From NCBI GenBank assembly GCA_943359525.1, contig CALRHV010000001.1, positions 7,181 to 71,180 on the forward strand: a DNA stretch of 64,000 nucleotides. The letters are read 5' to 3'. Shown here one piece after another: positions 3,087 through 61,630 of the stretch (positions are counted from its first letter, which is position 1; each line of letters starts with the position of its first letter). The notes under the pieces were generated by a model. It ran no database searches. It was not told the origin of the DNA and was given only the letters and a program-made list of their open reading frames with translations. Position numbers and translations under genes: made by a program. This DNA is from Candidatus Uhrbacteria bacterium. GTDB taxonomy: Bacteria; Patescibacteriota; Patescibacteriia; UBA9934.

Positions 3087-3362
3087 CTGCGGCTGATTCT
3101 TTGAATGGGTTGTGACGAGGTGACGACGAAATATGCATCATTGGCGATCCTCGAGTTCCGACCGGAGGGACTGATTTTCGATTTCACCGATGTTGTGTCG
3201 ACACGACATTTCATTTGCAAAAACACCAATGATTTTCACAATCAGATGTTGTGTCGACACAACATCCTTGATTTCGCAAAACGCACATACCAGGTCAGCC
3301 GACCACGTCAGTTGTTTGTATTTCCCGTCCATCCCGATCCACCCCTCCAAGAATCAGTTCAG
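3087..3362 (-). repeat. Intergenic TIR/twin-palindrome element, copy E1
   Basis: Imperfect terminal inverted repeats (CTGAACTGATTCTTGG..); 20-bp palindromes at 3190-3209 and 3246-3265; highly similar to 17713-17983. Confidence 0.85.
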
Positions 3363-3368
3363 ACCACT

Positions 3369-3749
3369 TCAAGCCTCCTTCCGTATACTCATCATAAGGA
3401 ATTCGATCAGTCCCACCAAAACCACTAGTAAAATCATGGTTCCGGAGGAGAACAGGTCGCGGGAAAGTAAGTAGAGACAGGCAAGGAAAAGAACAGAAAG
3501 CATCACGCCTTGTCGGAAAGAACGTGCAACGGCAGCATGAATAGCTTCTTCCGCGTATTTCTTTGACCGAATCATGGTTCCACCAATGGTAAAGACGCCG
3601 GCAATTCCCGCACCAAGCGTGAGATAGAAGATGAAAAAGGCTAATGTTCCTGCCGTTGCTGGATCAATTGAAATCATCACAATACACCATGCCGAAATAC
3701 TGATGGCGGTGCCAAGGGCGAGAGCGATGAGGTACTGATGGAGGGACAT
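3369..3749 (-). CDS. Hypothetical membrane protein (about 4 TM)
   Basis: 126-aa hydrophobic ORF, co-directional with neighbours. Confidence 0.75.
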   Translation of the reverse strand: MSLHQYLIALALGTAISISAWCIVMISIDPATAGTLAFFIFYLTLGAGIAGVFTIGGTMIRSKKYAEEAIHAAVARSFRQGVMLSVLFLACLYLLSRDLFSSGTMILLVVLVGLIEFLMMSIRKEA

Positions 3750-3761
3750 GAGAAGAGTATA

Positions 3762-4109
3762 TCAGAAATTTCCCTTCTCTTTCTGCACTCGTGCGATGAT
3801 TTTTGTGATATCTGCTTCTGGAATTTCCGACTGGATCCTCGCAAGGATTGTTGGAATCATCCCGTCGATGTCGAACGTGGCCGGTGCGTTGTCGCAGCCA
3901 AGAATGAGAATACCGGCGGCATAACTCGAGACACGAACGTCGTCTGCAAGCGGAGATCCCTCCAGCATTTCAGCGAGGATTTCTTTTGCGCTGTTGACGA
4001 TGATTGCCGCAGTTACCTGTTTTGTAATGCCATGTCGCATCAACGTGCCTTCGAGCATTTTGCTGATTTGTGTCAGCGAAGTCCGGCGGCGCTTAGGCTG
4101 GTCTTGCAT
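3762..4109 (-). CDS. DciA/DUF721-like protein (tentative)
   Basis: ~115 aa from MQDQPK; size and pattern 'VRVSSYAAGILILGCDNAP' resemble DUF721; start uncertain. Confidence 0.5.
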   Translation of the reverse strand: MQDQPKRRRTSLTQISKMLEGTLMRHGITKQVTAAIIVNSAKEILAEMLEGSPLADDVRVSSYAAGILILGCDNAPATFDIDGMIPTILARIQSEIPEADITKIIARVQKEKGNF

Positions 4110-7029
4110 ACGGGCAAATATCTTTAAAATCGCAGTACTGACAATGCGGGCCCGGGGTTGCCTGGAATGTGCTCGTGCGAATCTTTTCCATGCTGTCGCG
4201 AATCTGGAGCTTGAGCTTTTCCTTGTCCTTATCCGTTGGCTCAAAACTTACCGCCGTGTTCGATTCTAGGTAATAGTACGTCATCTTCTTCACGACGAGT
4301 GGCGGCACAAAACTTTCTTCTGCGGCAATAGCGTACAGCACCAACTGACGGCGGTCGTCCCAATCGAGTTTGGTTTTCGGCTGACCGGTTTTGTAGTCGA
4401 TAATCTCGATCCCACCATCGATGTCATCAATCCGGTCGATTCTACCTTTGACGAGAATTCCGTCGATCTTGAGCGTGAATCCTTTTTCGATGAATGTTGG
4501 CGACGGTGGATTTTCGGTGACCACGCGATAGTATTCCTTCATGATCTCGCCGCCGCGAGCCTGATACTCATCGCGAGTTTTGTCGTCTGGGTACCATTCA
4601 TCGATCCATGCCCGATCGTACATATCGAGCAAATCTTTCATTGTTGGCAGCGCGACGGCATCGTTTGAACCGTTGAATAGACTTGCTTGATGCGCAGCCT
4701 TCGACGCAATAATGCGTTCCATGAATGCCTGAAGTGCGTTGTGCATGGACTTTCCAAAGCTCATCTGGTGCTTGCCATACGACGGTACGCCAATAATGTG
4801 CGCGTATTTGTACTGCAACGGACACGTACTGAATGCAGCGATCTGCGAGAAACTGATCTTGTCCGGAATGTGAATGTTCGCGTCGCCCGTTGGTTTCTTG
4901 CCGACTTCGAGTGCGAGGCTGTCGGCGATATTCTCCGGTCGAGCAACAGTGATCGCGTTTGTGAATCCGAGTTCATCAAGAAACCGTGAGACTTTTCTCT
5001 TCCGAGCTCCTCCGTAATCCTCCGCACTCATCAGATACAATCCTTCCTTTGCGCGAGTCATCGCCACGTAAAACAGCCGACGCTCTTCTGCGACGTGATC
5101 ATTCCCCTCAACTTCATCCTTCATCAAACCCGCCGGAAAATCGATCGCCTGTGATCTGCTCACCGACGGGAAGCGTTGCTCGACCAAGTTGATCACGAAA
5201 ACGTATCGGAACTCGAGACCCTTCGATCCGTGCACGGTCATCACCGATACCACGTCTGGTCCTTCCTCAGGATCTTGAGCAACCGCGCCGTCTTCCCCCG
5301 CTGCACGCTCGGCATCGAACTCCTCAATGAATCTTGGGAGCGTCGCGTCGTCATTCATCGCAACAAAGCGCTTCAGGCGATTGAAAAAGCGTTCAAGAAA
5401 TCTATAGAGCTCTTGCTGCTCCATCTCGGAAGCGTGCTGACAGTCGCCGAGCAATCCTGTTTTCTTCATCATCGTCACGAACAATTCCGTGATCGGCAGT
5501 CGTTTTGCTGTATTTCGAAGTTCAGCAAGTTTCTGTTGGAGGTCGATAATCGTGTTTCGGCCGTGCATTGAAATGCGTGCCGCATCGGCGTACGTGAGCA
5601 AATCGAAGAGAGACATTCCCTTTCGTCGAGCATAGAACATCAGTGCCGTCAGATCTTCCTGCGATAACCCTAGTCGAGGATGCGAGAGGATCCGATATAA
5701 CGATGGTGAATCGTGCGGCGCGTTGATGACACGAAGGTAGCTGACTGCATCAAGAATAATCGGCATGGTGTACAGACCGGAGAGCGCCATGAATCGGTAC
5801 GGAATACCGGCACGTTCAAGGGCCTCGAGGAATGGATCAACGTGGTCGTTTCCACGCGCAAGCAGCGCGAAATCCTTCCAGCTTGCGCCAGACTCGTCGT
5901 GTAATTTCGTGATCGTCTCAACAACGGTAGCAACCTCGTCTTCGAGCGTTGCGGCATGAATGTGATGAACATTTCCCGCGTGTTCGATGTTCGAGATCAG
6001 TTGTTTCGATAAACCCTCGGAGACCTCGAGCCGATGGGGATTGTTCTTGGTGATCGATGAATATGCAATATCGAGAATCCCCCTGCCGCTGCGATAGTTG
6101 TGCACGAGCACGATCTTCTTTGTATCTGGAAAATCCGATCGGAACGTGAGAATATTCGCAAGCGCCGCACCGCGAAACTTATAGATCGCCTGATCATCGT
6201 CGCCAACGATTGTAAGGTTATTCCTCGGCGCCGCCAAAAGTTTGACGAGCTCGTACTGCACGCTGTTCGTGTCCTGAAACTCGTCCACCACGATGTATGT
6301 GAACCGTTTTTGATACTCGGCAAGAATGTTCGGACGAGTCTTGAAGAGTTCTACGGTGTACGCGAGTAAGTCGCCGAAATCGAGCGCGTCTTCGTTGATG
6401 AGAATGTCTTGATATGTTTTGTACGCACGAGCAACTTCACGGTGTTTTCTCCATTCAAGTCGTTCCTCTTCCGGCAACGCATCGAACGCTTCTTCCGATC
6501 CCGAAGTGATCGATGCGATCTGTGATTCGACTTGATCGATGTACTGATCTGGCGTTATTCCCTCGTCCTTCGCTCGCGAAAAGTGTGAAAGCAAAAGTTT
6601 GAAAAACTTCGTCGGCGTCCCCCGTGGCTTGTAGTAGTCGAGCGTGAAATCGGCAAGATGACGTCGCATGAACAGCCAGCCGTCCACTTCGGACGCGACC
6701 GTGAAATCTTGCGGGATGCCGATATCAACTCCGTGTTCGCGCAGCACTTTTTCGCAAAATGCGTGAAAGGTTGAGATGGAAAGATCGACGTATCCCATTG
6801 GCAGCAGCACGTCTACGCGTTCCTCCATTTCATTCGCGGCCTTGTCCGTAAACGTGAGTGCAAGAATATTTTCCGGCATCGCCTTACCTTGCTCAATAAG
6901 CCACGCAATGCGCTTGGTGATTACCGTCGTCTTCCCCGTCCCAGCCCCAGCAATAATCATGAGCGGCCCATCGCCATGGGTAACCGCTTGCTGTTGCTCA
7001 GCATTGAGATTATCGAGAAGCGAAGTCAT
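4093..7029 (-). CDS. UvrD/PcrA-family SF1 helicase fused to a C-terminal PD-(D/E)XK (RecB/Cas4-like) nuclease
   Basis: 'AGAGTGKT', 'VDEFQDTN', 'VGDDDQAIYKFRGA', 'MTVHGSKGLEF', 'EERRLFYVAMTRAK'; C-terminal 'GRIDRID..IIDYKTG' plus Cys..CxxCxxxxxC Fe-S motif. Confidence 0.92.
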   Translation of the reverse strand: MTSLLDNLNAEQQQAVTHGDGPLMIIAGAGTGKTTVITKRIAWLIEQGKAMPENILALTFTDKAANEMEERVDVLLPMGYVDLSISTFHAFCEKVLREHGVDIGIPQDFTVASEVDGWLFMRRHLADFTLDYYKPRGTPTKFFKLLLSHFSRAKDEGITPDQYIDQVESQIASITSGSEEAFDALPEEERLEWRKHREVARAYKTYQDILINEDALDFGDLLAYTVELFKTRPNILAEYQKRFTYIVVDEFQDTNSVQYELVKLLAAPRNNLTIVGDDDQAIYKFRGAALANILTFRSDFPDTKKIVLVHNYRSGRGILDIAYSSITKNNPHRLEVSEGLSKQLISNIEHAGNVHHIHAATLEDEVATVVETITKLHDESGASWKDFALLARGNDHVDPFLEALERAGIPYRFMALSGLYTMPIILDAVSYLRVINAPHDSPSLYRILSHPRLGLSQEDLTALMFYARRKGMSLFDLLTYADAARISMHGRNTIIDLQQKLAELRNTAKRLPITELFVTMMKKTGLLGDCQHASEMEQQELYRFLERFFNRLKRFVAMNDDATLPRFIEEFDAERAAGEDGAVAQDPEEGPDVVSVMTVHGSKGLEFRYVFVINLVEQRFPSVSRSQAIDFPAGLMKDEVEGNDHVAEERRLFYVAMTRAKEGLYLMSAEDYGGARKRKVSRFLDELGFTNAITVARPENIADSLALEVGKKPTGDANIHIPDKISFSQIAAFSTCPLQYKYAHIIGVPSYGKHQMSFGKSMHNALQAFMERIIASKAAHQASLFNGSNDAVALPTMKDLLDMYDRAWIDEWYPDDKTRDEYQARGGEIMKEYYRVVTENPPSPTFIEKGFTLKIDGILVKGRIDRIDDIDGGIEIIDYKTGQPKTKLDWDDRRQLVLYAIAAEESFVPPLVVKKMTYYYLESNTAVSFEPTDKDKEKLKLQIRDSMEKIRTSTFQATPGPHCQYCDFKDICPYARPA

Positions 7030-7032
7030 GGC

Positions 7033-8163
7033 TTAAAGCGATGCGATATTTTCTGCGGCGGTAACAGCGAACTGAATTCCTTGTTGAGTGAGAAGATATG
7101 TTCCGGCGCCAAACATGATTGCAACGTGAACAGCGAGAACACCTGCGAGAATTTTCTGGTGCCTCGTCATTGGTGTTGATTCCGATGGTTCTGATCCCGC
7201 GGTGAGCGTTATAACGCCGCGAATCAAATACACGTTAATGATCGCGAGTGCAAAGAAGACAAGAAGTGCAAGGATAAGGTGTGCTTGAAGTGCATAACCA
7301 ACGCCAATAAGTTCGCTTACAAAAAGCACAGAAAATGGAGCGCCAAGAAGTGACGCGAAGAGCGCGCCAGAAAGATATTTCAGTGTGGTGTTTGATTGAA
7401 CCACTGCAGAGCTTTGTGTGGAGTACCACAGCCCAGAATGCGCAACGGCCTGACCAACAAGATGAATAATTGCAGGGATGGTCCCTGCTGGACCAGCGCC
7501 GATCATGAACGCAACAAGGCCAATGTGCTGAACGCTGGAAATTGATAGAAGCTGTCGTTTCTTTTTAAACACCAATTTCACCACCGCCATCAGTATAATG
7601 AGCGCACCAAAGCCAAGAAAAAAATTGTTCGTCCATACTCCGTCGTCTGCCATCGCTCCGTCGGTAATCTGTTTTACGCGGAGAAGCGCAATGAAGAACA
7701 CCACTGGCGCTGCGCCGCCAACAAAGCTTGTGAAACGCGTTTTCATGAAAAAGATCCCGAATGACGAGAGCGTTGCGACCGCCACCACAATAAATGCCCA
7801 TTGGATATATTGTGACGTGAAGAGCAATGCAGCTCCAATAGTGAAGAGACCAACCGAACCAATGCACAACGCGAGAATTGCCTTCCGTGCTTTTTCGTCT
7901 GCCGCACGCTGGGCGTGAAGCGCGAGGCACGTTGCCGCAAGAACGGCTAGCGCAAATGTCAGTGCAAGAACAGCGATGTTATTAGTGAACGCGGCCGCGA
8001 CAACCGCGACAAGTCCGGCGAAGGTGACGGAAAGTTCAGAACGATGTGCTCGTGCTCCATTGATGGTGAGCGCAAGCGTCCCAACCGCGAGTATTCCAAT
8101 CAACACCAACTGGCACCACACAAGGATGTCAACGTGCCACACAGAAAGGAATGCGTTCAACAT
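7033..8163 (-). CDS. HyfF-like proton-antiporter-family membrane subunit (degenerate/shortened)
   Basis: 'KKRQLLSISSVQHIGL' and 'GAPFSVLFVSELIG' resemble HyfF/NuoN motifs. Confidence 0.65.
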   Translation of the reverse strand: MLNAFLSVWHVDILVWCQLVLIGILAVGTLALTINGARAHRSELSVTFAGLVAVVAAAFTNNIAVLALTFALAVLAATCLALHAQRAADEKARKAILALCIGSVGLFTIGAALLFTSQYIQWAFIVVAVATLSSFGIFFMKTRFTSFVGGAAPVVFFIALLRVKQITDGAMADDGVWTNNFFLGFGALIILMAVVKLVFKKKRQLLSISSVQHIGLVAFMIGAGPAGTIPAIIHLVGQAVAHSGLWYSTQSSAVVQSNTTLKYLSGALFASLLGAPFSVLFVSELIGVGYALQAHLILALLVFFALAIINVYLIRGVITLTAGSEPSESTPMTRHQKILAGVLAVHVAIMFGAGTYLLTQQGIQFAVTAAENIASL

Positions 8164-8172
8164 ATGAGGCGA

Positions 8173-9900
8173 TTAGCGACGAAGTTTTTCAAGCGCACAG
8201 TTCCACAGCGTTTTGCATCGATTCCCCACCGTCAGTCGTGCGACGATTTTTTCGCGACATGCTTCGATTGCTTCAAATGTGGGGACGCGATCCAGCCACG
8301 ATGCACGGAAATACCATGCGATGAGTGCAATTGCGCCAGTAAGGATACCGATGATTCCCATGCGCAACGTCCCCATTGCAGTGACGATGCCTCCGTTAAA
8401 CGTTCCCGCAGCGCTGGTAAGTGGATCAGCACCGATAGCAGCGAAAAGTTGCGGCAGCGCGAATCCGCTCACGAGTGCGAGGAATGCGAGCAGCACAATG
8501 GGAGTGAGTTGCGAATCGGTTGCCTCGGTGATGACCTTCTCCGATTCTGCTCGCGATGAACCAAGGAATACGCCGATGATCACGCGACCAACACTCACAA
8601 TCGACAACAGCACACAAAGATCAAAGATAACGAGGATAGCACCAGAGATAATTGCCAGCGGAAGCGCTATGTCGGGAAAAGCCCCCCAAAGTGTTGTGGC
8701 AAACATCCAGGCGCTCGTGAACGTTGCAAACGGCGGAAAGCCAATGGCACAGAGGAGAAGAATGAACGCAGCAATCGTTAGCTTGGGCATTTTTTCTGCA
8801 AGGCCTCCGGTATGGTTGATGTTCGATCCCACAATATCGCCGACGAGGAAGAGGCCCGATCCTGCGATAGCACTAACCGTAATCTGTACGAATGCCGCAA
8901 ACAGCATCACATTCATTGCCTCATAGATTGCGACAGCTTGGAACGCCATTGCACCGGCAACCATCGTTATTGCAACACCCATGCTCTGTAAACTGATATT
9001 ACTGAAGATGCGTTGAATGTTCTTTTCATTCAGCGCACAAATTGCGCCGCACACAATCGTCAATACACCAAGCAAAGCCACAGGAAGAGCGAACCAGATG
9101 GACAACGGCGGAAGAATGAACAGAATACACCTTACGAATCCGTAAAAGGCCACGCCAGAAAGCACTCCTCGGAATAACGCGCTGATATGTGCAGGAACGG
9201 TTGCGTGGACGTTGCGGAGCCAGCGATGCATCGGGAACAGGCCAATGGTGCTCGCGAAGCCAAAGAGCAACAGACCGTAGCCAACAGTGAGCTGAATTGG
9301 ATCGATTTGGCCAGCGAGATATGCGAGCGTGCCGAAGTCGCTAAACAACGCGCCGGAAGAAAGAATAAAGAAACCAGCAGTGAGTGCCGCGATACCGAGT
9401 TGCGAGATGGTCAGAAATTGCAGCGCGACCGACTTTTCCGATCGCGAAAAAACGAGAAAGAACACGGAGAACATCATTACGGCCCAGGAGGCAATGAAAC
9501 CGATAATGTTTCCGGAGATGAACACCCACTGTGCACCAATGACGAAAAGCGCGCTGAGGATTCCGACGTGACGAAGATGCGCGAGATTGTTTTGGTGCTT
9601 TGCTCCATACACCAACGCGTAGAGACCAGCCGCTGCGATCACAATCGATATCCCAACAAAAAAGATCGCACTGAAGCGATCCAACGCGATCGTCATCCCA
9701 TAGAACATCGGAACGGACATAGTGAACGGTGCTTCGGCGACGGCGCCGTATGCACCAGCGATTGCTCCTCCAATTCCTGAAAGGGCAAGGAGAAGCGAGT
9801 TCCATTTGAACGACATCGCCGGCTTAAGGAACGCCGACACCACAAGGGCAAGCACCGGAGCAACCATGGCAATATAGAGTGTATTCTCAAAAGGTGTCAT
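8173..9900 (-). CDS. HyfB/NuoL-M-like proton-antiporter-family membrane subunit (degenerate)
   Basis: 'LDRFSAIF', 'GLFPMHRWL..H..VPAHISAL', 'GGLAEKMP', 'GFPPFATFTS'. Confidence 0.75.
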   Translation of the reverse strand: MTPFENTLYIAMVAPVLALVVSAFLKPAMSFKWNSLLLALSGIGGAIAGAYGAVAEAPFTMSVPMFYGMTIALDRFSAIFFVGISIVIAAAGLYALVYGAKHQNNLAHLRHVGILSALFVIGAQWVFISGNIIGFIASWAVMMFSVFFLVFSRSEKSVALQFLTISQLGIAALTAGFFILSSGALFSDFGTLAYLAGQIDPIQLTVGYGLLLFGFASTIGLFPMHRWLRNVHATVPAHISALFRGVLSGVAFYGFVRCILFILPPLSIWFALPVALLGVLTIVCGAICALNEKNIQRIFSNISLQSMGVAITMVAGAMAFQAVAIYEAMNVMLFAAFVQITVSAIAGSGLFLVGDIVGSNINHTGGLAEKMPKLTIAAFILLLCAIGFPPFATFTSAWMFATTLWGAFPDIALPLAIISGAILVIFDLCVLLSIVSVGRVIIGVFLGSSRAESEKVITEATDSQLTPIVLLAFLALVSGFALPQLFAAIGADPLTSAAGTFNGGIVTAMGTLRMGIIGILTGAIALIAWYFRASWLDRVPTFEAIEACREKIVARLTVGNRCKTLWNCALEKLRR

Positions 9901-9987
9901 AGCCTGGAAATATTACGGAATAAGTCCCTGTATATCAGCCGAAGTGTATGGTTTATAGGGTTCCCGATCAAGCAGGTTGTCCACTGC

Positions 9988-10028
9988 AAAAATGACCCTT
10001 CCCGGCCTTATGGCTGGGGAGGGTCATT
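9988..10028 (-). terminator. Intrinsic terminator after atpC
   Basis: Stem AATGACCC(T)TCCC(G)GCC / GGCTGGGGAGGGTCATT with a U-tract on the minus strand. Confidence 0.8.
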
Positions 10029-10036
10029 GATCGCGT

Positions 10037-10477: not shown

Positions 10478-10489
10478 AGAGTGGTGGAT

Positions 10490-10635
10490 GCGAGCGATTC
10501 AACGGGTGGCACCGAGGGAGGCCCCCGTACGGAGCGCAACGAGCGCCGTAGTAACGTGATGATCGCCGATGAAGTGACGCGCGCGGTGAGCACCGTAACG
10601 GGGTCCGAGGTGACAGGACCCGTTGATGAGCTCGC
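10490..10635. repeat. Long imperfect hairpin (REP-like) between atpD and atpC
   Basis: GCGAGC/GCTCGC and TCAACGGGT/ACCCGTTGA pairings; its first ~28 nt recur at 35399. Confidence 0.7.
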
Positions 10636-10637
10636 AA

Positions 10638-12895
<2,258 letters not shown>

Positions 12896-12897
12896 AG

Positions 12898-14406: not shown

Positions 14407-14416
14407 AGATTGGGGT

Positions 14417-14812: not shown

Positions 14813-14813
14813 A

Positions 14814-17712: not shown

Positions 17713-17983
17713 CTGAAACTGATTCTTTGGATGGTGGTGAGAATGATAAAAAAGTGCATTGTTGGCGATCCTTATGCTCCGACCGGCAGTTCAATTTCCA
17801 ATTTTGGCGATGTTGTGTTGACACAACATTTCGTGTGCAGAAATGCCAATGATTTTCACAATCAGATGTCGTGTCGACACAACATCCTCAATTTCGCAAA
17901 ACACACATGCCTGTCGCCGACGATGTCTGTCATTCGTTCGCCTCCGTCACCACGTCCCAACCCCCTCCAAAGATCAGTTTCAG
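17713..17983 (-). repeat. Intergenic TIR/twin-palindrome element, copy E2
   Basis: TIRs CTGAAACTGAT(T)CTTTGGA at both ends; palindromes at 17810-17829 and 17866-17885. Confidence 0.88.
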
Positions 17984-21805: not shown

Positions 21806-22330
21806 ATGATCTCGATCAACAAGCCAGCACCAAGCTTTGAAAACATCACGTCGTACACCAAGGGCGAGTTTACGAAAACAAGCCTCAGCTCGTACAAAGG
21901 AGGCTGGGTGGTGCTGTTCTTCTACCCTCGCGACTTCACCTTCATCTGTCCAACCGAAATTAAGGGCTTCCAAAAGCACGAAGCGGACTTTGCCGCCCTC
22001 AACGCAAAAGTCATCGGCGCATCCACAGACAGCGAATGGAGCCACAAAGCATGGTTTGAAAAGGATCTCCCTGAAGTGGCCTACCCTATCCTTGCCGACA
22101 CAACGCAAAAAGTTTCCCGCGACTACGGCGTGCTCAACGAAGACGACGGCAGTTCCGATCGCGGCTTGTTTATTATCGATCCAGAAGGTGTAGTGAAATA
22201 CGCCCTAGTCTCTGCCGGCTCCGTCGGCCGATCAGTCAAAGAAGTGCTCCGCGTTCTCACAGCACTTCAATCCGGCGAACTCTGCCCAATGGAATGGGAG
22301 CCGGGCGAGAAAACATTGGGAAAGGCGTAA
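21806..22330 (+). CDS. ahpC: Peroxiredoxin (AhpC/TSA family, 2-Cys)
   Basis: 'FFYPRDFTFICPTE', 'GELCPMEW'. Confidence 0.95.
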   Translation: MISINKPAPSFENITSYTKGEFTKTSLSSYKGGWVVLFFYPRDFTFICPTEIKGFQKHEADFAALNAKVIGASTDSEWSHKAWFEKDLPEVAYPILADTTQKVSRDYGVLNEDDGSSDRGLFIIDPEGVVKYALVSAGSVGRSVKEVLRVLTALQSGELCPMEWEPGEKTLGKA

Positions 22331-22348
22331 ACGTCACATATCATCAGT

Positions 22349-22382
22349 AAAAAACTGGAGCCACAACAGGCTCCAGTTTTTT
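22349..22382. terminator. Bidirectional intrinsic terminator
   Basis: A6-CTGGAGCC-loop-GGCTCCAG-T6 between convergent genes. Confidence 0.85.
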
Positions 22383-22641
22383 ACACCGACCGATAGATAT
22401 CGTGATCACCAACAGCAAGAAGGATTATTCCGTCAGTCGATCGTTCAAAAACAATTCTGGTTTTATAGTTTACCGAAAAACTCCACAAGTCATGAAGATT
22501 CCCTTTTAATTTATGTACTTTTAACGTGCTGTGATGTTCGGGGTTGCGAAACATCTCAACCTTCTCATAGACATCTTGTCGAAGATCTTCCGGCAAAGAA
22601 CTCGTCATTTTTATAAATTGCTTCGTAAACTGAATTCGCAT
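22381..22641 (-). CDS. RelE/YafQ-like type II toxin
   Basis: 86 aa; 'LKVHKLKGNLHDLWSFSVNYKTRIVF', 'VGDHDIY'. Confidence 0.85.
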   Translation of the reverse strand: MRIQFTKQFIKMTSSLPEDLRQDVYEKVEMFRNPEHHSTLKVHKLKGNLHDLWSFSVNYKTRIVFERSTDGIILLAVGDHDIYRSV

Positions 22642-22928: not shown

Positions 22929-23060
22929 TACCTCATCTCCGCCGGCAGGGAGTGCCGATCGGTAAAGAAAGCGATGCGTGTACTGACGGCACTTCAATCC
23001 GGCGAACTCTGCCCAATGGAATGAGAACCAGGAGAGAAGACATTAGGAAAGGCGTAAACG
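22929..23060 (+). pseudogene. Duplicated, decayed 3' end of ahpC
   Basis: Translates YLISAGRECRSVKKAMRVLTALQSGELCPME*EPGEKTLGKA*, versus ahpC ...RSVKEVLRVLTALQSGELCPMEWEPGEKTLGKA*. Confidence 0.9.
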
Positions 23061-23064: not shown

Positions 23065-23160
23065 CACGGTCACCCCAATTGTTCAGGATGACCGTGCGAG
23101 TGGTCACCCCTATCTTTCGGGATGACGTTGTAAGTGTCACTCCTATTGCGTTGGAGTGAC
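23065..23160. repeat. Three tandem related hairpins (33-34-bp period); the last on the minus strand may terminate 23179..23895
   Basis: GTCAC(C/T)CC-loop-GG(A/G)..TGAC units at 23069, 23103 and 23136. Confidence 0.7.
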
Positions 23161-37430: not shown

Positions 37431-37518
37431 GTCTTTGCGAGGAGAATGTAATCGTTCGACGAAGCAATCTAGGTTTAGCCTGGATTGCCACGTCGGGATT
37501 ACCCTCCTCGCAATGACG
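37431..37518. repeat. Inverted REP-like doublet upstream of greA
   Basis: GTC(T/A)TTGCGAGGAG...GCAATC units in inverted orientation; the second unit is 35/37 identical to 49138-49174. Confidence 0.8.
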
Positions 37519-37528
37519 AATCAATTTC

Positions 37529-49092: not shown

Positions 49093-49368
49093 CTGAACTG
49101 AAGTGAGCTGATCTTGGAGTGGGTTGGGATGGGGGCTCGTCATTGCGAGGAGGGTAATCCCGACGCGGCAATCTAGAGAATTTTGCATCATCGGCGTCAT
49201 CGGGGTGGTCGATTTCGTGATATCCTCGATGTGCGGTCCACCGCACATTTCGTTCATCAATTCATTGGGCTTTTTGCAAATAAAATGTGCGGTGGACCGC
49301 ACATGCTCAAAACCGGAAATCGAGCACTCCGATCGCAACACGAGGATTGCCGATTAAGATTCATTTTC
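49093..49368 (+). repeat. Intergenic TIR/twin-palindrome element, copy E3 (contains a REP insertion at 49138-49174; right end truncated)
   Basis: Left TIR CTGAACTG..CTGATCTTGGAGTGGGTTGGGA; palindromes at 49229-49248 and 49285-49304; spacer and flank homologous to E1/E2 in reverse orientation. Confidence 0.8.
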
Positions 49369-49374: not shown

Positions 49375-49590
49375 ATGAAACAACCAAAATTTATTTCGCA
49401 CCTCTATTCCTTTCGGATCGTTGAACCGATCTCACAGTTCGATCTCGCAAAAGAACTCGGAATCCGCAGGCAAACGCTCGCCGCCATCGAAAAAGGTACA
49501 GCTCAGCCTTCGCTACTCACTGCCTTCCGCCTCGCAAAATATTTCAAAACCCCAATTGAAAACCTTTTTTCTTTCAAAGACCGTCCGTAG
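49375..49590 (+). CDS. XRE/Cro-type HTH transcriptional regulator (71 aa)
   Basis: 'SQFDLAKELGIRRQTLAAIEKGTAQPSL..AFRLAKYF..PIENLF'. Confidence 0.88.
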   Translation: MKQPKFISHLYSFRIVEPISQFDLAKELGIRRQTLAAIEKGTAQPSLLTAFRLAKYFKTPIENLFSFKDRP

Positions 49591-53575: not shown

Positions 53576-54685
53576 ATGACAAATCTTTTCCTCCGTAAGG
53601 TGCTCGGAGTTACAACAATCTTCGCAATGTTCCTTACTTTTGTTCCGCTTTCTGCCAGCGCCTCCTGGCTTGGCGCACCAAGTAACGTCACGCTCGAAGA
53701 TGGCATTTACACAAATGACACCACGCCAACCGCCACCTGGACTCGTCCAGCTAACGCAACGTGGTACCAAGTTCTTGTCGACAACGGCGAGTGGCAAAAC
53801 CTGTCCAACGTTGGTTCGTACACGCTGTTAACGCAAACAAACGGCTGGCATACGTTCTACGTTCGCGCTCGTGGCAATAACAACACCGTGAGCACATCGG
53901 GATCCGTCACCTTCGAAATCGACACCATCGGCCCAACAGTCTCGACGGTATCTCCCTCATCGGCGATCGAGGATGTATCAACCGCGTTCTCAATTTCAAC
54001 CTCTGGCGAAGCTGCAACATCGTTCTGTGATCTGTACGTTAGTGGATCGTTCACTGGATCGATGACGAAAAGTGGGTCAACCTTCAGTAAGTCCTACACG
54101 TTTGCGAATGACGGAAGCTATACCGTATACGCACGCTGCACCGATGGCGACGGCAACTCCACCACGGGAACATCGCGCACCGTAACCGTGAGCAACCAAT
54201 CAACCACATACACCGGCGCAGTTCGCGGATCGCTCATCAAAATTCCTTGCGGCGTGTACGCACGAACGTCGGAAACGTGTAAGGCGGTGTACTACTTCGG
54301 CAACGACGGCAAGCGCCATGTGTTCGCAAACGAAAGCGTGTTCTACACGTGGTACTCCGATTTTGACGACGTGGTGAACGTAAGCCAAGACTTCATGTCG
54401 TCACTGACGATCGGGAAAAATGTCACATATCGCCCAGGAAGCGTCGTCGTAAAATTCGACAGCTCATCCAAGGTGTACGCCATTCAAGCGGATCACACGC
54501 TTCGTCACTACACCACACTCTCGCTCCTGAAATCCGATTACGGTACATACTGGACGAACGTTCTCGCGAAAGTTCCAGATTCCCTCTACAGCAACTACAC
54601 CATCGGCTCCGTGATCGACAACGTCCGAGACTACGACCGCGACGATGCGTACTATTCCGTCGACTCCATCGACGACGTGCTCTAA
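53576..54685 (+). CDS. Secreted/cell-surface protein, Ig-like domains plus 'VYY..DGKRHVF' repeats
   Basis: Signal peptide; Thr/Ser-rich beta domains; paralog of 57171..58310. Confidence 0.8.
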   Translation: MTNLFLRKVLGVTTIFAMFLTFVPLSASASWLGAPSNVTLEDGIYTNDTTPTATWTRPANATWYQVLVDNGEWQNLSNVGSYTLLTQTNGWHTFYVRARGNNNTVSTSGSVTFEIDTIGPTVSTVSPSSAIEDVSTAFSISTSGEAATSFCDLYVSGSFTGSMTKSGSTFSKSYTFANDGSYTVYARCTDGDGNSTTGTSRTVTVSNQSTTYTGAVRGSLIKIPCGVYARTSETCKAVYYFGNDGKRHVFANESVFYTWYSDFDDVVNVSQDFMSSLTIGKNVTYRPGSVVVKFDSSSKVYAIQADHTLRHYTTLSLLKSDYGTYWTNVLAKVPDSLYSNYTIGSVIDNVRDYDRDDAYYSVDSIDDVL

Positions 54686-54764
54686 ACGCGATCGATCAGA
54701 TCGGCAAGACACCAAAACCGGCTCTGCGCCGGTTTTGTGATTGCAATTTGTTATACTGCTCTGC

Positions 54765-55907: not shown

Positions 55908-56043
55908 CACTCCCGGATTTCTCCGGGAGTGCGTGGCACATGTTAGTGCGTTCCTTGGTTGTACAATTTGAGCGCGTAGTCAGACCACCACGCTCCGGCG
56001 CTCGGGCCGCCACTGCAGTTGCCGTCGGAATCGCCTGGTGCTT

Positions 56044-56505
56044 TCACCCATAATCCTGCATCTTGATATCACTGACGGCTTTCATGAATTCGTCGTAATG
56101 TGCTGCGATCATCGAACGATTGATAGTGTAGCCGAGCGTGATGTGCTGACTCAGGACTTTTGTAGCCCATTGACGGAATTTGGTTGCTCGTTGGGAATTC
56201 ACCCGGTATCCAACAGAAATAATCACGTCGAGATTGTAGTACTCAATTTCACGTGTTACTTCGCGTTTGCCTTCCTTTTGAACTGTTGCGATTTTTGCAA
56301 CAGTTGCCTTTTGGCCAAGTTCGCCACTTTCAAAAATATTCTGGATATGACGAGAGACACCGGATTTATCCGTATCAAAAAGATCAGCCATTTGCTGAAG
56401 ACTGGCCCAAAGCGTTTGTTTTTTTGTATCTGTGCGCAGCTCGATAGCTCCGGATTTCGCCTGATAAACAGCGAGCTGATTCGTGATATTCCTCTTGGAT
56501 TTCAT
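56044..56505 (-). pseudogene. RhuM-family protein, apparently C-terminally truncated
   Basis: 'QMADLF', 'SRHIQNIFESGEL', 'YNLDVIISVGYRVNSQRATKFRQWAT'; stops at 153 aa. Confidence 0.7.
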
Positions 56506-56551
56506 ACGGAGGCATTATAACAAAATCCCAGCATTTCTGCTGAGATTTCGT

Positions 56552-56626
56552 TGGCTCCGGGGGTGGGGATCGAACCCACGACCTGAGGATTAACAGTCCT
56601 TCGCTCTGCCGCTGAGCTACCCCGGA
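56552..56626 (-). tRNA. tRNA-Asn(GTT)
   Basis: TCCGGGGTAGCTCAGCGGCAGAGCGAAGGACTGTTAATCCTCAGGTCGTGGGTTCGATCCCCACCCCCGGAGCCA: cloverleaf, anticodon GTT, encoded CCA. Confidence 0.97.
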
Positions 56627-56728
56627 ACGAATAATGAACGGGGGCAGAATATCATGATTGGCGCAGAGGATCAAGCGGGTGTGCCCACAGAGCCAGGCCG
56701 TCTTCGTGTTAAAATACGAACATATCCT

Positions 56729-57118
56729 ATGCAAAAATCTACCATATTCGGCATCAAGGTCAGCGTCGGCTCAACACTTCTCCTCTTCGCGCTCGTTGTT
56801 CTCTCCTATTACGTCCTCGGCGAAGGATATCGCGAAGCTATTCACAATAAGGTTTTTATAGGTGCGTACACAACCGTTCTCTCTTTCCTCACCGCGCTAT
56901 TCACCGCAAATACTCTGTTAAAGAATTCAAAGCTCTCAAAACAAGAGGCTATCGATCACCTGAATCGAGGCTGGCGGGTATATGCAGGAATTGCGGCGAT
57001 CTTCTTTTTTATCAACTTCAACCAGGCACTGATGAATGGACCGATCTTCACCTTGTTCTCAATTCTCTCAATCGCCGCTGGTTCTGCAGCGTTCTTTGTT
57101 CTGAGGGCTCGACAGTAA
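56729..57118 (+). CDS. Hypothetical membrane protein (about 4 TM)
   Basis: 129 aa from MQKSTIFG; terminator near 57119-57153. Confidence 0.7.
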   Translation: MQKSTIFGIKVSVGSTLLLFALVVLSYYVLGEGYREAIHNKVFIGAYTTVLSFLTALFTANTLLKNSKLSKQEAIDHLNRGWRVYAGIAAIFFFINFNQALMNGPIFTLFSILSIAAGSAAFFVLRARQ

Positions 57119-57170
57119 ACAAAAAAGACGAAGCATTGCTGCCCCGTCTTTTTCTCATCGTGATCGATGA

Positions 57171-58310
57171 TTAGTCGATAACGACGCCATTGTCCCAGTT
57201 CTGATCAATGGTAGTTGTTCCGTAAAATTCCTTTGTTTTGCTGTAATCGGCAGAGGAATAAATCTTGCTGCCGATGGTGTAGTTGTTCCAATATGCCTGC
57301 GGAAGCGTCACAACGTAACTCGTCCAGCGCGAACCGTAAATGGCCTTTGCTGCAGCTTCATTAACAATGGGACGGAGCACCTGACCATCGGCCACCGCGT
57401 ACACCGTGCTGGAATTTGAGAATTTCACAAGCGACGTGCCAGGACGATACGTCACATTCCGGCCGCTCGGCATATTATTAAGTGTTGCCTTACTCACGAT
57501 GATCACGTTCGAAAACGAACTGTACCAGGTTTTGTACACGCTTTCTGATGGGAAAAGGTGCTTCTTACCGTCCAAACCGTAGTAATACACGATATGACAA
57601 TCGTCAGAAGTTGGCGCGTATGATCCGCACTGGGTCTTCACCACTGTTCCCTTTACGACGTTCGCGACCGGATAGTCGTCATACAAAATGACGCCCTTGC
57701 TCACACCAACAAACGATACCGGGCCGTTGCTCCAATTATTATCAGCATCAACACACGTTGACTGAATAACATTGCGTCCAAGCGCGTTCAAGGTGACGCT
57801 CTGAGACCATCTCGATCCATCGATCGCCATCCGCTCACCGAGCGTGCCGTTCACACGGAGTTTGCAATACTGCACCGGAGCCTCTCCCGATGTTGTCACA
57901 TAAAAACGCGTTAAGACTCCAGCTACTGCAGTGGTCGGAGTAACAACCGACACCACTGGCCCCTGCGTATCGATCTCAAAGGTCAGCCCAGAGGAAACGC
58001 TTACGCCGTTCACGCTGTCGTGGGAACGAACGTAGAAGGTGTGCCATCCGGTTGTGAGGGTGTTGTATGTATACGTAGAAACGTTGCCGATTCCAGCCCA
58101 TTCGCCGTTGTCGAGCAACACTTCGTACCAGGTTGCGCCCGCTGAAGGCGTCCAGGTGAAGGTTGGGGTAACGTCATTGGTGTACTTTCCGCCAACAATC
58201 GCAAGGTTTACTGGAGCTACAGGAGCCGCAAATGCTGGCAACGCTGGGCCGAACACCGAACCAATAATCATCACCGCTACTGCGAAACGTGACACAAGCG
58301 TCTTTTGCAT
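57171..58310 (-). CDS. Secreted/cell-surface protein, paralog of 53576..54685
   Basis: Shared 'YTND.TPT.TW', 'ATWY.VL.DNGEW', 'GWHTFYVR', 'TFEIDT.GP', 'NVTYRPG'. Confidence 0.8.
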   Translation of the reverse strand: MQKTLVSRFAVAVMIIGSVFGPALPAFAAPVAPVNLAIVGGKYTNDVTPTFTWTPSAGATWYEVLLDNGEWAGIGNVSTYTYNTLTTGWHTFYVRSHDSVNGVSVSSGLTFEIDTQGPVVSVVTPTTAVAGVLTRFYVTTSGEAPVQYCKLRVNGTLGERMAIDGSRWSQSVTLNALGRNVIQSTCVDADNNWSNGPVSFVGVSKGVILYDDYPVANVVKGTVVKTQCGSYAPTSDDCHIVYYYGLDGKKHLFPSESVYKTWYSSFSNVIIVSKATLNNMPSGRNVTYRPGTSLVKFSNSSTVYAVADGQVLRPIVNEAAAKAIYGSRWTSYVVTLPQAYWNNYTIGSKIYSSADYSKTKEFYGTTTIDQNWDNGVVID

Positions 58311-58405
58311 AGTTGAATGACCCTCCGATTACTTTTCTATTGATATTGCACGTTATTTAGGCACTTCTGTCAATAATTTCAGGGGTAGGCTATCCTTACG
58401 CGACT

Positions 58406-59302
58406 ATGAATCCACTCTCAATCCAACACGTTTCAAAAACGTACAAAACACCCAAAAAAGAAGATTTGTTGGCCGTGGACGACGTTTCGCTCGTTATTGC
58501 CCCTGGAAGCATTCATGGGCTGCTCGGCCCCAATGGCGCCGGAAAATCCACGCTCATCAGCCTTATTGCCGGAATCAATACGCCAACACATGGTTCAATT
58601 ACGCTTTTCGGCCTTGATGTGATCAAAAACCCCGAGGCCGCAAAAGGGCTCATCGGCGTTGTCCCACAGGAGGTGGTGGTGGAAATGGCTTTCACTGTTC
58701 AAGAAGTGCTGTATTACTTTTCTGGAATGTACGGCGTACCACAGGCCCAGCGACAAGCGCGAATCGACCAAGCACTTGACGACCTCCAACTCACAGAAAA
58801 GAAACACGAAAAAGCAAAGAATCTTTCCGGCGGAATGAAACGTAGGCTGATGATCGCAAAGGCGATTCTTCATCAACCAAAATTACTCATCCTCGACGAA
58901 CCAACAGCGGGCGTCGACGTCGCGTTGCGACAAAAGATCTGGGAACTCGTCCGCAGGCTCAACGCATCCGGCACAACGATTCTCTTTACCACGCACTATC
59001 TTGAAGAAGCCGAACAGCTTTGTGATGCGATTACGCTCGTGAATCATGGAAAGGTGATCAAGGAAGGAAAGCTTAAGGATATTCAGCAGGAATTCTCCAA
59101 GAACATCATTCACTTTGAGCTGTTTAATAAATCTGTTTCACATCCAAGCGACGTTGTTGCTACCGGTTCTGAATTCGAATTCCCGATGACGAATCTTGCG
59201 CAAGACATGAACATGATCACCACGCATTACGGCGATAATCTCAAAAATATTCGAAGCGAAGCTGCATCGCTTGAGCAGATCTTCCTGACGCTGACGAAAT
59301 AA
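58406..59302 (+). CDS. ABC-2 transporter ATP-binding protein
   Basis: 'GPNGAGKST', 'LSGGMKRR', 'LDEPTAGVD', 'TTHYLEEAE'. Confidence 0.93.
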   Translation: MNPLSIQHVSKTYKTPKKEDLLAVDDVSLVIAPGSIHGLLGPNGAGKSTLISLIAGINTPTHGSITLFGLDVIKNPEAAKGLIGVVPQEVVVEMAFTVQEVLYYFSGMYGVPQAQRQARIDQALDDLQLTEKKHEKAKNLSGGMKRRLMIAKAILHQPKLLILDEPTAGVDVALRQKIWELVRRLNASGTTILFTTHYLEEAEQLCDAITLVNHGKVIKEGKLKDIQQEFSKNIIHFELFNKSVSHPSDVVATGSEFEFPMTNLAQDMNMITTHYGDNLKNIRSEAASLEQIFLTLTK

Positions 59303-59308
59303 TTCTCT

Positions 59309-60076
59309 ATGAGTATCTCCCTCCCCCAAACCGGAATGTGGGCGCTGTATGCCCGCGAAGTGAAACGTTTCCAAAAACTTTGGATGGACACCATCTTTAA
59401 CCCGATTGTTTCCATCGGACTGTATCTTGCAGTGTTTGGAGTCGTTGCTGGTGATCGCGTGATTCACGGCGTTCCGTACCTCGCGTTCATCTACATTGGA
59501 CTGCTCAGCATGAATCTGATCAACGCGAGTATTTCAAACCCCGCGTTCGCGCTCATCATCAGCAAAAATCTCGGAACGATCATCGACCTACAGCTTGCGC
59601 CAATTTCCCCATGGCGCGTTGGACTGGCTTACGCCCTTGCTGCTCTCACTCGCGGAGTCATCACGCTCTTCGTTGGAGTCCTGCTCACGGCGTGGTTCAT
59701 TCCGCTTGGAGGCATTGCTCACCCATTCCTGCTCCTCCTTGCGATTGCCTTAACCGGCATTCAATTCGGCATTGTTGGCGTTGCGTTCGGCATGTGGGCG
59801 AAGAATTTTGAGGCCCTCACATTCCTAACAACGTTCGTTCTACAACCGATGATCTTTCTTGCCGGCGTGTTCTACCCTATCGATAGTTTGCCATCGCCGT
59901 GGAACATCATCAGCCAGTTCAATCCCCTGCATCACAACGTAAATCTTCTCCGTTTCGCCGTTACCGATTACGCCGACGGCAATCCATGGAGATCGCTCAT
60001 TATCGTTATCACTCTTCTTGTCGCCGCAACCGTCGCGATGCATTACATCGTGAAGAAAAAACTTCGCGCGGAGTAA
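59309..60076 (+). CDS. ABC-2 transporter permease
   Basis: 'REVKRF', 'FLAGVFYPIDSLP', 'NPL'; about 6 TM. Confidence 0.92.
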   Translation: MSISLPQTGMWALYAREVKRFQKLWMDTIFNPIVSIGLYLAVFGVVAGDRVIHGVPYLAFIYIGLLSMNLINASISNPAFALIISKNLGTIIDLQLAPISPWRVGLAYALAALTRGVITLFVGVLLTAWFIPLGGIAHPFLLLLAIALTGIQFGIVGVAFGMWAKNFEALTFLTTFVLQPMIFLAGVFYPIDSLPSPWNIISQFNPLHHNVNLLRFAVTDYADGNPWRSLIIVITLLVAATVAMHYIVKKKLRAE

Positions 60077-60079
60077 TCT

Positions 60080-61354
60080 ATGCCATACGATATTTGTATT
60101 ATAGGCGCGAGCTTTTCTGGACTGACCCTCGCCCATCATCTTCCAAAAGAACTCAGCGTCCTCATCGTCGACGCGAAGCCGGAAGCAGGATCGACGGTTG
60201 AATCAACGGGACTTATTACCGTCAAAACTCGCGACGAATTCGCGACGTTTTTCCCGATCCATGATTTCATCACGAACCCTATTTCCGCGATTGCTGTCAT
60301 CGCGCCAGGACTCGAGGACATGTTCGTCTCAACTGTGCCCGAACCATGGATTTATCAGACAGATACCAAAGCGCTCGTGAAAGCGCTCGCCGATCGCTTG
60401 CCGCCGAATGTGACACTCCGAACGAAGACGGTATTCCTCGGAGTTAATAATACTGATCAGCCGACCAGGGTTCGTGTGCGATCGCTGGGCTCCGATGAAG
60501 AGGAGATCGATATTGCGTTCCTCGTTGGCGCCGACGGCGGGCATTCGAAAGTTGCGCAATGCGTGAATGGACTATCGAAAAATACGAAGTTTCTCTTCGG
60601 CTACGAACAAGTGTTCTTCGGAGATGTTTTGCGAGGCCCGAAACCGGAGGAAACGATCTTTCACTATTGGTTCGGCGAGTTCTCGCTTGGGTACGGCGGA
60701 TGGCTGTCGCCAACTATTGTTGATGGAAAGAAAGCATTCCGCATCGGGCTCGCAAAGATGATGAAAGATCGCGGGGATGCAAAACAGCTCACGGAAACAT
60801 TCGTCAAGCAGCTTGTTGATCGCGGCGATATTCGGATTGATGGTGATGTTACGAAACCTGGATATGTATTTGGAAGTCATATTCCCATCGGCGGAACGCG
60901 TTCAAAGATTTCGAAAAACAACGTGCTCCTCATTGGTGACGCCGCCGGATTCTGCGGAGCGTTTGCAGCCGACGGTATTAAGGGATCGGTGATTTCGGGA
61001 AAGGAAGCCGCAATTCTCATTCCACAGTTTCTTCGAGGAAAAACTGATGCGCTCGATCAACTTCACACACGAATGAACACCCACGGCGGCATCATGAGCT
61101 ACTACCGCCGGCAAATGCTGTATCGATTCATTTGGAGCGTGATGCAAAGGAACCGAACATTCCGCGCAATGTACGACATTATCGCCGTAGAACACGCAAC
61201 GTTCCTGGATCAATTTTGTGATAGTAAAGACAAGCACCGCAGCCTCGCGTGGACGGTGTTAAAGTGGAGGCATACGGCGAAGCTGATACGGTACTCGGCG
61301 TATTGGGCGTACGATGCGGTGTTATGGTTATTACAGAAGACAAAACTGAACTGA
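60080..61354 (+). CDS. Geranylgeranyl-reductase-like FAD-dependent oxidoreductase
   Basis: 'YDICIIGASFSGL', 'VGADGGHS', 'LIGDAAG'. Confidence 0.82.
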   Translation: MPYDICIIGASFSGLTLAHHLPKELSVLIVDAKPEAGSTVESTGLITVKTRDEFATFFPIHDFITNPISAIAVIAPGLEDMFVSTVPEPWIYQTDTKALVKALADRLPPNVTLRTKTVFLGVNNTDQPTRVRVRSLGSDEEEIDIAFLVGADGGHSKVAQCVNGLSKNTKFLFGYEQVFFGDVLRGPKPEETIFHYWFGEFSLGYGGWLSPTIVDGKKAFRIGLAKMMKDRGDAKQLTETFVKQLVDRGDIRIDGDVTKPGYVFGSHIPIGGTRSKISKNNVLLIGDAAGFCGAFAADGIKGSVISGKEAAILIPQFLRGKTDALDQLHTRMNTHGGIMSYYRRQMLYRFIWSVMQRNRTFRAMYDIIAVEHATFLDQFCDSKDKHRSLAWTVLKWRHTAKLIRYSAYWAYDAVLWLLQKTKLN

Positions 61355-61630
61355 TCCTTTGAGGATTGGAATGGAGAAATGCAGTGCGATATGTGTGACT
61401 TGCCCAGCTTGGGTGTGCAATTTTGCATTTCTCGAGTGTAAAGACCTCTTTACATTCCTTTTGCAACTTTTATTGGGCTTTTCGATCGAAGAAGTGTAAA
61501 CTCCTCTTTACACTCCTGGATTGTGAAATTGAACACCCCAAGCCACCGATAATACCACCGTCTCGTCGCCACAACCCCATTAAAAGATCAAGATCACTCC
61601 CCTCCCAACCCATTCCAAGATTCAGTTCAC
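61346..61630 (+). repeat. Intergenic TIR/twin-palindrome element, copy E4
   Basis: TIRs CTGAACTGATCCTTTG.. / ..CCAAGATTCAGTTCA; palindromes at 61436-61455 and 61494-61513 (TGTAAA-N6-TTTACA). Confidence 0.75.

Follow-up and report, generated by a model that had tools for sequence, protein, structure and literature searches.

Several known families of short repeats resemble the elements described here. The Correia (NEMIS) elements of Neisseria and the MITEs ERIC, YPAL and RUP are likewise non-coding, smaller than 500 bp, bounded by terminal inverted repeats (TIRs), capable of forming a long hairpin and located between genes at sites that are filled or empty, and the 155-bp form of Correia carries a site for a host protein (IHF), akin to the payload of our cassettes (available text of PMC2229807 and PMC10969869). 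However, neither TA ends nor a target duplication was found in the cassettes, no parent IS is known, and their payload is a predicted sequence-specific repressor operator, which exists in classes that can replace one another and varies together with paralogous repressors. TIRtron/TIRYT repeats and REPINs, in the available text of Di Nocera et al. 2013 (PMC3733652), are also moderately abundant repeat dimers with DNA between the partners, near stop codons, but the cassette repeat was not found flanking any of the Y1 genes examined. The Caulobacter CIR repeats are intergenic and contain a conserved recognition site for a host protein (PMC2229807, available text); compared by description, they differ in that this is a methylase site and in having two separate arms. 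Literature searches, in which subscription journals are poorly covered, did not find the cassette family described. We regard the cassettes as a MITE-like family with predicted mobility that probably captured host operators, whose binding is likewise predicted.

The window (the whole stretch of 64,000 nucleotides analysed) comes from a Ca. Uhrbacteria-like genome of the Patescibacteria. Four elements, E1 to E4, had been reported in it by the initial annotation, and their coordinates, palindromes and spacings were confirmed as written (Table 1): the two palindromes start 56 bp apart in E1, E2 and E3 and 58 bp apart in E4. It also holds that the TGA stop of the upstream gene lies within the left repeat of E2 and E4, and that the right repeat of both ends 11–12 nt before the next ATG. 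TIRs had been claimed for all four copies; E3, which has received a 40-bp insert (second copy at 37480-37519), has no intact right repeat, and the right repeat of E4 is doubled. The proposed kinship of E3 and E4 with E1 and E2 is clear for E3 (alignment score of E1-E3 69, best shuffle 28), while E4 alone is weak in pairwise comparison (matched by 1/300 shuffles against E1, 2/300 against E2 and 0/300 against E3).

Table 1. Coordinates of the cassettes and associated features in the window
Feature	Position (bp)	Strand	Description
E1	3087..3362		class A, between membrane-protein gene and mreB; no adjacent XRE
E1 left terminal repeat	3087..3120	+	
E1 palindrome 1	3190..3209		predicted XRE operator, E1/E2 type
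E1 palindrome 2	3246..3265		
E1 right terminal repeat	3333..3362	-	
E2	17713..17983		class A, between cvpA-like gene (stop within repeat) and tatD
E2 palindrome 1	17810..17829		
E2 palindrome 2	17866..17885		
E3	49093..49368	+	class A, left repeat intact, right repeat decayed, XRE gene directly 3'
Nested insert in E3	49137..49176		40 bp, CGTC-type palindromic repeat of a separate family flanking small GIY-YIG genes
E3 palindrome 1	49229..49248		E3 type
E3 palindrome 2	49285..49304		
E3-adjacent XRE/HTH_3 repressor gene	49375..49590	+	71 aa; predicted E3 cognate
E4	61346..61630	+	class A, 58-bp spacing, doubled right repeat, XRE gene directly 3'
E4 palindrome 1	61436..61455		E4 type
E4 palindrome 2	61494..61513		
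E4-adjacent XRE/HTH_3 repressor gene	61642..61857	+	71 aa; predicted E4 cognate

Further copies had been expected, and the genome contains approximately 20 cassettes in total (225–510 bp, imperfect terminal repeats of about 30 bp) that share one scaffold; the terminal repeat gave 43 matches in the genome and none in the reversed genome. Ten of the cassettes (class A) carry twin TGT-N12-ACA palindromes, a pattern found only once in 30 shuffled genomes taken together. In an unbiased scan of this genome for spacings of 30–100 bp, all 10 class A copies had starts 56 or 58 bp apart, which supports the view of a non-autonomous, repeat-bounded cassette with constant twin-site geometry. The cassettes resemble one another at 65–80%. 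Orientation with the downstream gene, which is true of E1 to E4, was seen in only 8/10 class A copies genome-wide. A second payload was missed by the initial annotation: in about nine cassettes (class B) the class A terminal repeats enclose an interior of 230 bp that contains a Fur/Zur-type box.

As in bacterial MITEs, these short non-coding elements with TIRs are dispersed in multiple copies, and orthologous sites can be either filled or empty. Both states, the empty one having been proposed as a check by the initial annotation, were found at mreB, tatD, rpiB and relA. The E1 site at mreB is filled in G000 (the genome studied here) and in its relatives G012 and G007, and empty in the 8 other genomes seen; the E2 site at tatD is occupied by class B in G009 and G002 and by a different repeat in G005, and is empty in G001. 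At tatD, mreB2 and uvrC, one species has class A and another has class B. Other sites are common to several species (trx (0.97), typA and hrcA), and the E4 cassette and its XRE are retained before typA in G005, G012 and G001. At the E3 site of G005, the XRE gene has lost its 5' half. A payload-free dimer of terminal repeats is present in G007 and a single-palindrome derivative in G012. Given these shared sites and the 65–80% similarity of the copies, present-day mobility is no more than a possibility, and repeated loss could also explain the patchy occupancy.

The genome has six HTH_3 matches, of which four are small CylR2-like XREs, each after a class A cassette (E3 and E4 are two of these four). 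CylR2, a homodimeric promoter-binding repressor (10.64898/2026.09.04.749385, available text), is the closest solved structure to the E4 XRE (E 2.4e-10). Across the genus, the twin block lies upstream of 16/17 XRE matches and a single palindrome upstream of 1/17, and the upstream palindrome is conserved with the XRE gene in genus and outgroups alike. The type of the palindrome changes together with the XRE next to it. Operator agreement was 0.92 between XREs sharing helix residues and 0.33 otherwise (0/10000 permutations; 17 in-group rows that are mutually kin, the mixed row of G007 excluded, with an XRE tree that has no starred branch). The E3-adjacent XRE has an Arg preceding the invariant Arg of its recognition helix, and the E1/E2-type palindrome precedes XREs with a Gly/Gln/Ala helix in G002, G005 and G012. 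The predicted code is not a simple one: two in-group XREs with Thr in the first position of the helix have a C7-type palindrome, but XREs of family f2 and Firmicutes with Thr in this position have the E4 type. Because all four genomic XREs and 16 of 17 in the genus follow the class A block, and because palindrome type tracks the recognition helix, small CylR2-like XRE repressors probably have their operators in these palindromes. The twin sites had been ascribed to a DNA-binding protein or a recombinase, with the small XRE noted merely as the downstream gene; the former role is likely, the latter was not supported. A likeness of E4 to a TyrR box was dropped, since the XRE link accounts for it.

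The same kind of operator occupies an ordinary promoter in outgroups. E4-type palindromes were found in the XRE promoters of three Firmicute loci and of 7/8 loci of family f2, and by this distribution the E4 type is the predicted ancestral one. The cassettes and their XREs share with CylR2-like repressors the best PDB match and the palindromic sites before the gene. However, operators of the sister family are 21–25 bp apart, whereas those of the cassettes have a spacing of 56 or 58 bp (two g3 loci have 115 bp) and are surrounded by TIRs, multiplied and diversified with the recognition helix. Two findings count against operator capture. A consensus scan found no sigma-70 promoter in E3 or E4, and for the three cassettes of E1/E2 type in G000 no XRE to match them was found in the assembly.

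The class B palindrome is found as well in front of the Fur-family gene that belongs to the znuA operon, lying over the promoter of this gene and of the metal-uptake operon, as a Fur/Zur box does. Like the znuABC boxes that overlap the -35 (PMC6103462, available text), it is a 21-bp palindrome that lies between -35/-10-like hexamers, upstream of a Fur-family gene and znuA; unlike them, it has been copied into approximately nine cassettes whose neighbouring genes have no relation to zinc. In genus g3 the Fur-family orthologues have the class B box in front, without terminal repeats. It is the znuA neighbour that points to Zur among the Fur-family members as the putative binding protein. The interior between the anchors measures 163–166 nt in 33/33 copies, and the box type equals that of the resident fur/zur promoter in 29/33 (mismatch in 4/33). 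No coding origin of class B was apparent (stops in all frames, codon pattern absent), the interior has no consensus fold outside the box, and helical periodicity and phased A-tracts were not significant (17/200, 21/200 and 521/1000 shuffles).

Among 12 copies of the E1/E2 type, conservation was 0.91 for the palindromes, 0.85 for the spacer, and 0.68 and 0.63 for the flanks. At asnS, the copies of two species are each other's closest relatives when the palindromes are left aside, but they belong to different palindrome types. The concerted swapping between copies proposed earlier is therefore not pure exchange, the change of type being at least partly in place. The suspected inversion was borne out: relative to the arms, the spacer occurs in both orientations (21 versus 16 clear cases among 51). 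No inversion joint was seen in contigs of possible source runs matching the E1 and E2 regions; contigs drop rare variants. Template switching yields both arm homogenisation and spacer inversion (PMC8604942, available text).

No mobilising enzyme was found. The terminal repeat was absent beside Y1 genes (0/31 loci, comprising 30 among >130 matches and the genome's own gene, which is flanked by a different repeat), beside DUF559 (7 loci) and beside GIY-YIG genes (13 loci). RAYT/TIRYT, DUF559 and GIY-YIG genes were rejected as partners, as each has its own flanking repeats and never that of the cassette; the RAYT/Y1 mobilisation suggested initially was not supported. Nor was the suggested recombinase partner: no serine resolvase gene (PF00239) was found, and the two tyrosine recombinases and the RTs are far from any terminal repeat, none adjoining a cassette. 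A metagenome scan gave 16 matches, of which three had cassettes, in no case with repeats enclosing a gene, and a viral scan gave three isolated matches; neither these scans nor the Y1, DUF559 and GIY-YIG loci revealed an autonomous IS or transposase with the same ends. Target-site duplications, another check proposed by the initial annotation, showed no excess (shared flank word 2.53 versus 2.55 in shuffles, 15 elements). Both features, a mobilising enzyme and target-site duplications, are defining for MITEs, and the failure to find either counts against this classification. Direct repeats are described as decaying in old MITE copies (PMC10969869, available text).

Our preferred reading, to which we assign a probability of roughly 0.6, is that of non-coding, TIR-bounded cassettes that were probably mobilised in trans like a MITE and whose twin palindromes would be operators captured from XRE promoters. 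One XRE dimer would bind each palindrome. An ancestral autoregulated XRE promoter may have become enclosed by repeats and have been copied to new gene boundaries by a transposase acting in trans. Replication template switching between the palindromes would keep the four half-sites matched and flip the spacer; the inversion would need no enzyme, because template switching explains it. Dispersed copies might be kept matched to the resident repressor by selection for binding or by conversion from the repressor-adjacent copy, and copies such as E1 and E2 would be remnants of a specificity that prevailed earlier. This reading does not explain how the XRE gene, being located outside the repeats, came to be present at several loci. 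In a bolder and rather unlikely extension, a selfish cassette would need the host repressor as architectural partner. Its operator payloads (XRE pairs separated by about five helical turns in vivo, or a block of fixed length containing a Zur box) would be exchangeable, bound repressor would loop the ends for mobilisation, paralogous XREs would split into non-cross-reacting groups like phage immunity types, and copies would be re-tuned as the resident repressor changes, rewiring regulons in regulator-poor genomes.

Domesticated regulatory modules, on which XRE or Zur would tune mreB, tatD, asnS, groES, hrcA and relA through a read-through roadblock or a long mRNA hairpin, are compatible with a mobile origin. 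The better conservation of operators than flanks, the tracking of resident Zur by class B boxes, the in-place change at asnS and the fact that several cassettes stop just short of an extended -10-like motif would all fit. However, the neighbouring genes have no common function, the same gene holds class A, class B or nothing among sister species, orientation is free, orphan palindrome types persist without a cognate XRE, and the operators lie approximately 100–200 bp from the start codons, so that we consider this explanation unlikely. A structured non-coding RNA family deserves hardly any credence: every copy folds far better than its shuffles (z-scores of E1 to E4 -6.5, -7.0, -5.5 and -5.1; 0/200 shuffles as good), but inverted repeats produce such a fold on both strands, class B has no shared structure beyond its box, orientation is not fixed and, as initially supposed, no catalogued Rfam family matches, the scan of the window yielding only a tRNA.

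Doublets of the REPIN/TIRtron type, in which repeats of a Y1 (RAYT/TIRYT) or small endonuclease family enclose a captured spacer, would account for the nested and doubled repeats, the repeat dimer of G007 and the insertion at stop codons. Among the family genomes, 49/68 contain Y1 genes, and TIR families are known as dimers (PMC3733652, available text). Against this, none of the Y1, DUF559 and GIY-YIG loci examined has the cassette repeat, G007 and G002 contain many cassettes and no Y1 match, and the GTAG or CGTC tag is missing from the listed repeat ends, which makes such an origin improbable. More doubtful still are site-specific recombination sites (res-like or an invertible switch), with the palindromes as crossover sites at which a recombinase inverts or deletes the spacer. 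The two spacer orientations and the derivative in G012 agree with this, but palindrome type tracks the XRE, not a recombinase, and the recombinase genes are absent or remote, as described above.

It is well established for eukaryotes that transcription-factor sites can spread by mobility. For bacteria, the available text of MITE reviews names only promoters, IHF sites and RNase cleavage (PMC10969869, PMC2229807). If our reading is true, the cassette family would be a bacterial case of mobile sequence-specific repressor operators. To our knowledge, gene regulation in ultra-small CPR genomes is nearly unstudied. The 70-aa repressors and their predicted operators would form a natural matched set, suited to the study of the recognition code and of four-half-site co-change in E. 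coli or in vitro.

E1 to E4, described in the initial annotation as related intergenic elements with terminal inverted repeats around twin TGT-N12-ACA palindromes, were confirmed in the window sequence (see table). Each folds into one long imperfect hairpin (z -5.1 to -7.0), and none has a match in Rfam. E3 lacks an intact right terminal repeat and contains a nested repeat from a different family. The claimed kinship held against shuffled sequences for E1, E2 and E3 pairwise and was clear for E4 versus E3; for E4 versus E1 and E2 it was borderline (1/300 and 2/300 shuffles, respectively). The 864-kb source genome has 10 occurrences of the twin palindrome pattern, compared to one in 30 shuffles, and an unbiased scan for palindrome pairs gave 10 pairs of four sequence types (E1/E2, E3, E4 and C7), all spaced 56 or 58 bp. 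A terminal-repeat profile had 43 matches in this genome and 0 in the reversed genome. The further copies that the initial annotation proposed to look for are present, and the cassette family is real.

Besides these 10 copies (class A), the source genome has at least 8 full cassettes and 1 partial cassette in which the same terminal repeats enclose a distinct interior of 230 bp (class B), and a half cassette is located upstream of a Fur-family gene and znuA. Of 162 genomes in the order, 11 have the twin pattern (control matches 0), including 8 of the 14 in the own genus; one match, in G122, is non-palindromic and probably due to chance. The terminal repeat is present in 12/14 genus genomes, and class B in 7 of the 68 family genomes, every one within the genus. 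In G007, a relative, seven loci (L168-L172, L175 and L176) hold composite cassettes of 600-960 bp with two tandem interiors that terminate in Fur/Zur boxes of different types; up to three nested terminal repeats enclose them, and a third interior class is present. Several further small palindromic repeat families exist in the source genome, some nested in cassettes. Small GIY-YIG genes are flanked by three CGTC-type families (19, 13 and 33 motif matches), DUF559 genes by another family (36 matches over both strands), and the genome's single Y1 gene has a repeat of its own (5 matches). A reverse transcriptase match occurs in 10/14 genus genomes.

Coordinates of the features (window positions unless a contig, C, or locus, L, of the source genome is named)
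Feature	Position	Strand	Description
E1	3087-3362		before mreB
E2	17713-17983		before tatD
E3	49093-49368		before an XRE gene
E4	61346-61630		before an XRE gene
Duplicate of gene 3' end	22204-22333 / 22931-23060		80% identical, flanking the 86-aa ORF
86-aa ORF	22381-22641		RelE-type toxin look, by eye
Tandem array	23068-23135		34-bp palindrome, after the 3'-end duplicate
Ig-like protein	53576-54685	+	secreted; inverted paralogue of the next, 70% alike over 120 nt; glycosyltransferase, RhuM-like gene and tRNA between the two
Ig-like protein	57171-58310	-	secreted
Reverse transcriptase	C7:35210-35821		related to the next; possibly DGR type
Reverse transcriptase	C13:14047-14655		possibly DGR type
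Fur-family gene (L208)	C20:5429-5863		protein 82% to G007, 72-76% to G005, G009, G012 and G002
291-aa ORF	L008:1429-2301 (C1:80128-81012)		adjoins class B cassette; HTH-like start by eye; no Pfam or NCBIfam matches

Four of the six HTH_3 genes in the source genome encode small XRE repressors of 66-75 aa, each downstream of a class A cassette. In the genus 17 such XREs were matched, in 9/14 genomes; 16 have a twin block upstream (one judged by eye) and 1 a single palindrome. The nearest solved structure is CylR2, described as a homodimeric repressor that targets its own promoter region (10.64898/2026.09.04.749385). Judged from sequence, the class A palindromes are likely the operators of these XREs. 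In the recognition helix, let position a directly precede the invariant Arg and positions b and c follow it. All 6 rows with Ala at c, drawn from two XRE groups, have a pyrimidine at operator base 4; all 3 with Lys at b have C at base 6, and both with Arg at b have G at base 4. The E1/E2 type is marked by Gly at a and the E3 type by Arg at a. Operator agreement was 0.92 among same-helix XREs versus 0.33 (0/10000 permutations; 17 in-group rows, with the mixed G007 row omitted and the comparison confined to the in-group). Against this counts that the rows are related to each other and that the XRE tree is poorly resolved. A simple code is also contradicted by Thr at a: two in-group XREs with this residue have the C7 type, whereas those of the sister family f2 and of Firmicutes have the E4 type, so other residues matter too. 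Three twin blocks in G001 and G007 (L045, L046, L196) have asymmetric palindromes, each fusing two different half-site types; XRE heterodimers or a specificity change under way are possible explanations.

Outside the genus, 8 of 73 genomes of f2 contain such an XRE, with E4-type palindromes immediately upstream in 7/8, five of them as pairs 21-25 bp apart; by eye, no terminal repeat surrounds them. The class A payload would derive from an ordinary XRE promoter of this kind. In another genus, g3, palindrome spacings are 21, 23, 56 and 115 bp. Most relatives' copies were retrieved by the 56/58 pattern, so that the spacing is unbiased only in the own-genome scan (10/10). With an in vivo helical repeat of ~11 bp, a distance of 56 bp spans about five turns.

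Half-sites match within a copy: agreement at bases 4-7 was 0.87 within versus 0.48 between copies. At asnS, the copies of two species differ in palindrome type although, with the palindromes set aside, each is the other's nearest neighbour (0.76). Read against two distinguishable arms, the core occurs in both orientations (21 to 16, 14 unclear). Template switching between inverted repeats is reported to homogenise arms and invert the spacer (PMC8604942); by this route the matching and the spacer flips would need no recombinase. It leaves the tracking of repressors by palindrome types, and the fixed spacing, unexplained.

The class B 21-bp palindrome recurs genus-wide between -35 and -10-like hexamers upstream of the Fur-family gene, there with a half cassette, and in g3 before the Fur-family gene with the terminal repeats absent. 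Zur boxes are reported to overlap the -35 frequently (PMC6103462), and class B is predicted to carry a Fur/Zur box. Two box types parallel two alleles of the Fur-family protein, and the box matches the type of its own genome in 29/33 copies. The source genome's class B interiors are closer to those of G005 and G012 (0.70) than to those of G007 (0.48), whereas its boxes match the G007 type; several loci have thus changed jointly in one lineage. MreB of the source genome is closest to G005 and G012, unlike its Fur-family protein; transfer of the Fur-family allele (L208) is possible. The interior measures 163-166 nt between anchors in 33/33 copies; helical periodicity, a reading frame and a consensus fold were sought in it and none was found.

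Empty sites, which the initial annotation had suggested as a check, were seen at the mreB, tatD, rpiB, relA and E3 sites. The E1 site is occupied in the source genome, G012 and G007 and vacant in eight others among the genomes listed. At the E2 site the source genome has class A, G009 and G002 have class B, G005 has another repeat and G001 is vacant; a second mreB site and the uvrC site also differ between species, being occupied by class A in one and by class B in another. The rpiB cassette is present in the source genome alone among five genomes sharing the upstream gene, and the relA cassette in 2/5. At the E3 site, G005 has a cassette with half of the XRE lost, G009 a remnant, and G002 and G012 are vacant; E4 with its XRE is stable across four species. 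Long Y1 (TIRYT-like) genes and other inserts recur at a hotspot, the boundary one gene upstream of the E1 site (L149 in G005, L153 in G001, L151 in G009).

The target-site duplications and the RAYT or recombinase partner also raised in the initial annotation did not materialise: no duplication was detected, and among the candidates examined (Y1, DUF559 and GIY-YIG genes, recombinases and reverse transcriptases) none was linked to the cassettes. The family resembles bacterial MITEs with a host-protein site, such as the long Correia element, for which an IHF site is reported (PMC2229807, PMC10969869), but differs in having no detected target duplication and no parent transposase found; it is therefore classed as MITE-like, not as a MITE member. 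With none of the 31 Y1 loci examined flanked by its terminal repeat, the family is by this test not a TIRtron or REPIN (compare PMC3733652). No description of this cassette family was found in the literature searched (main texts, mostly outside subscription journals). New here would be, as far as sequence indicates, twin XRE operators as a payload, the way this payload varies together with the paralogous repressors, and the exchange of payloads at one site.
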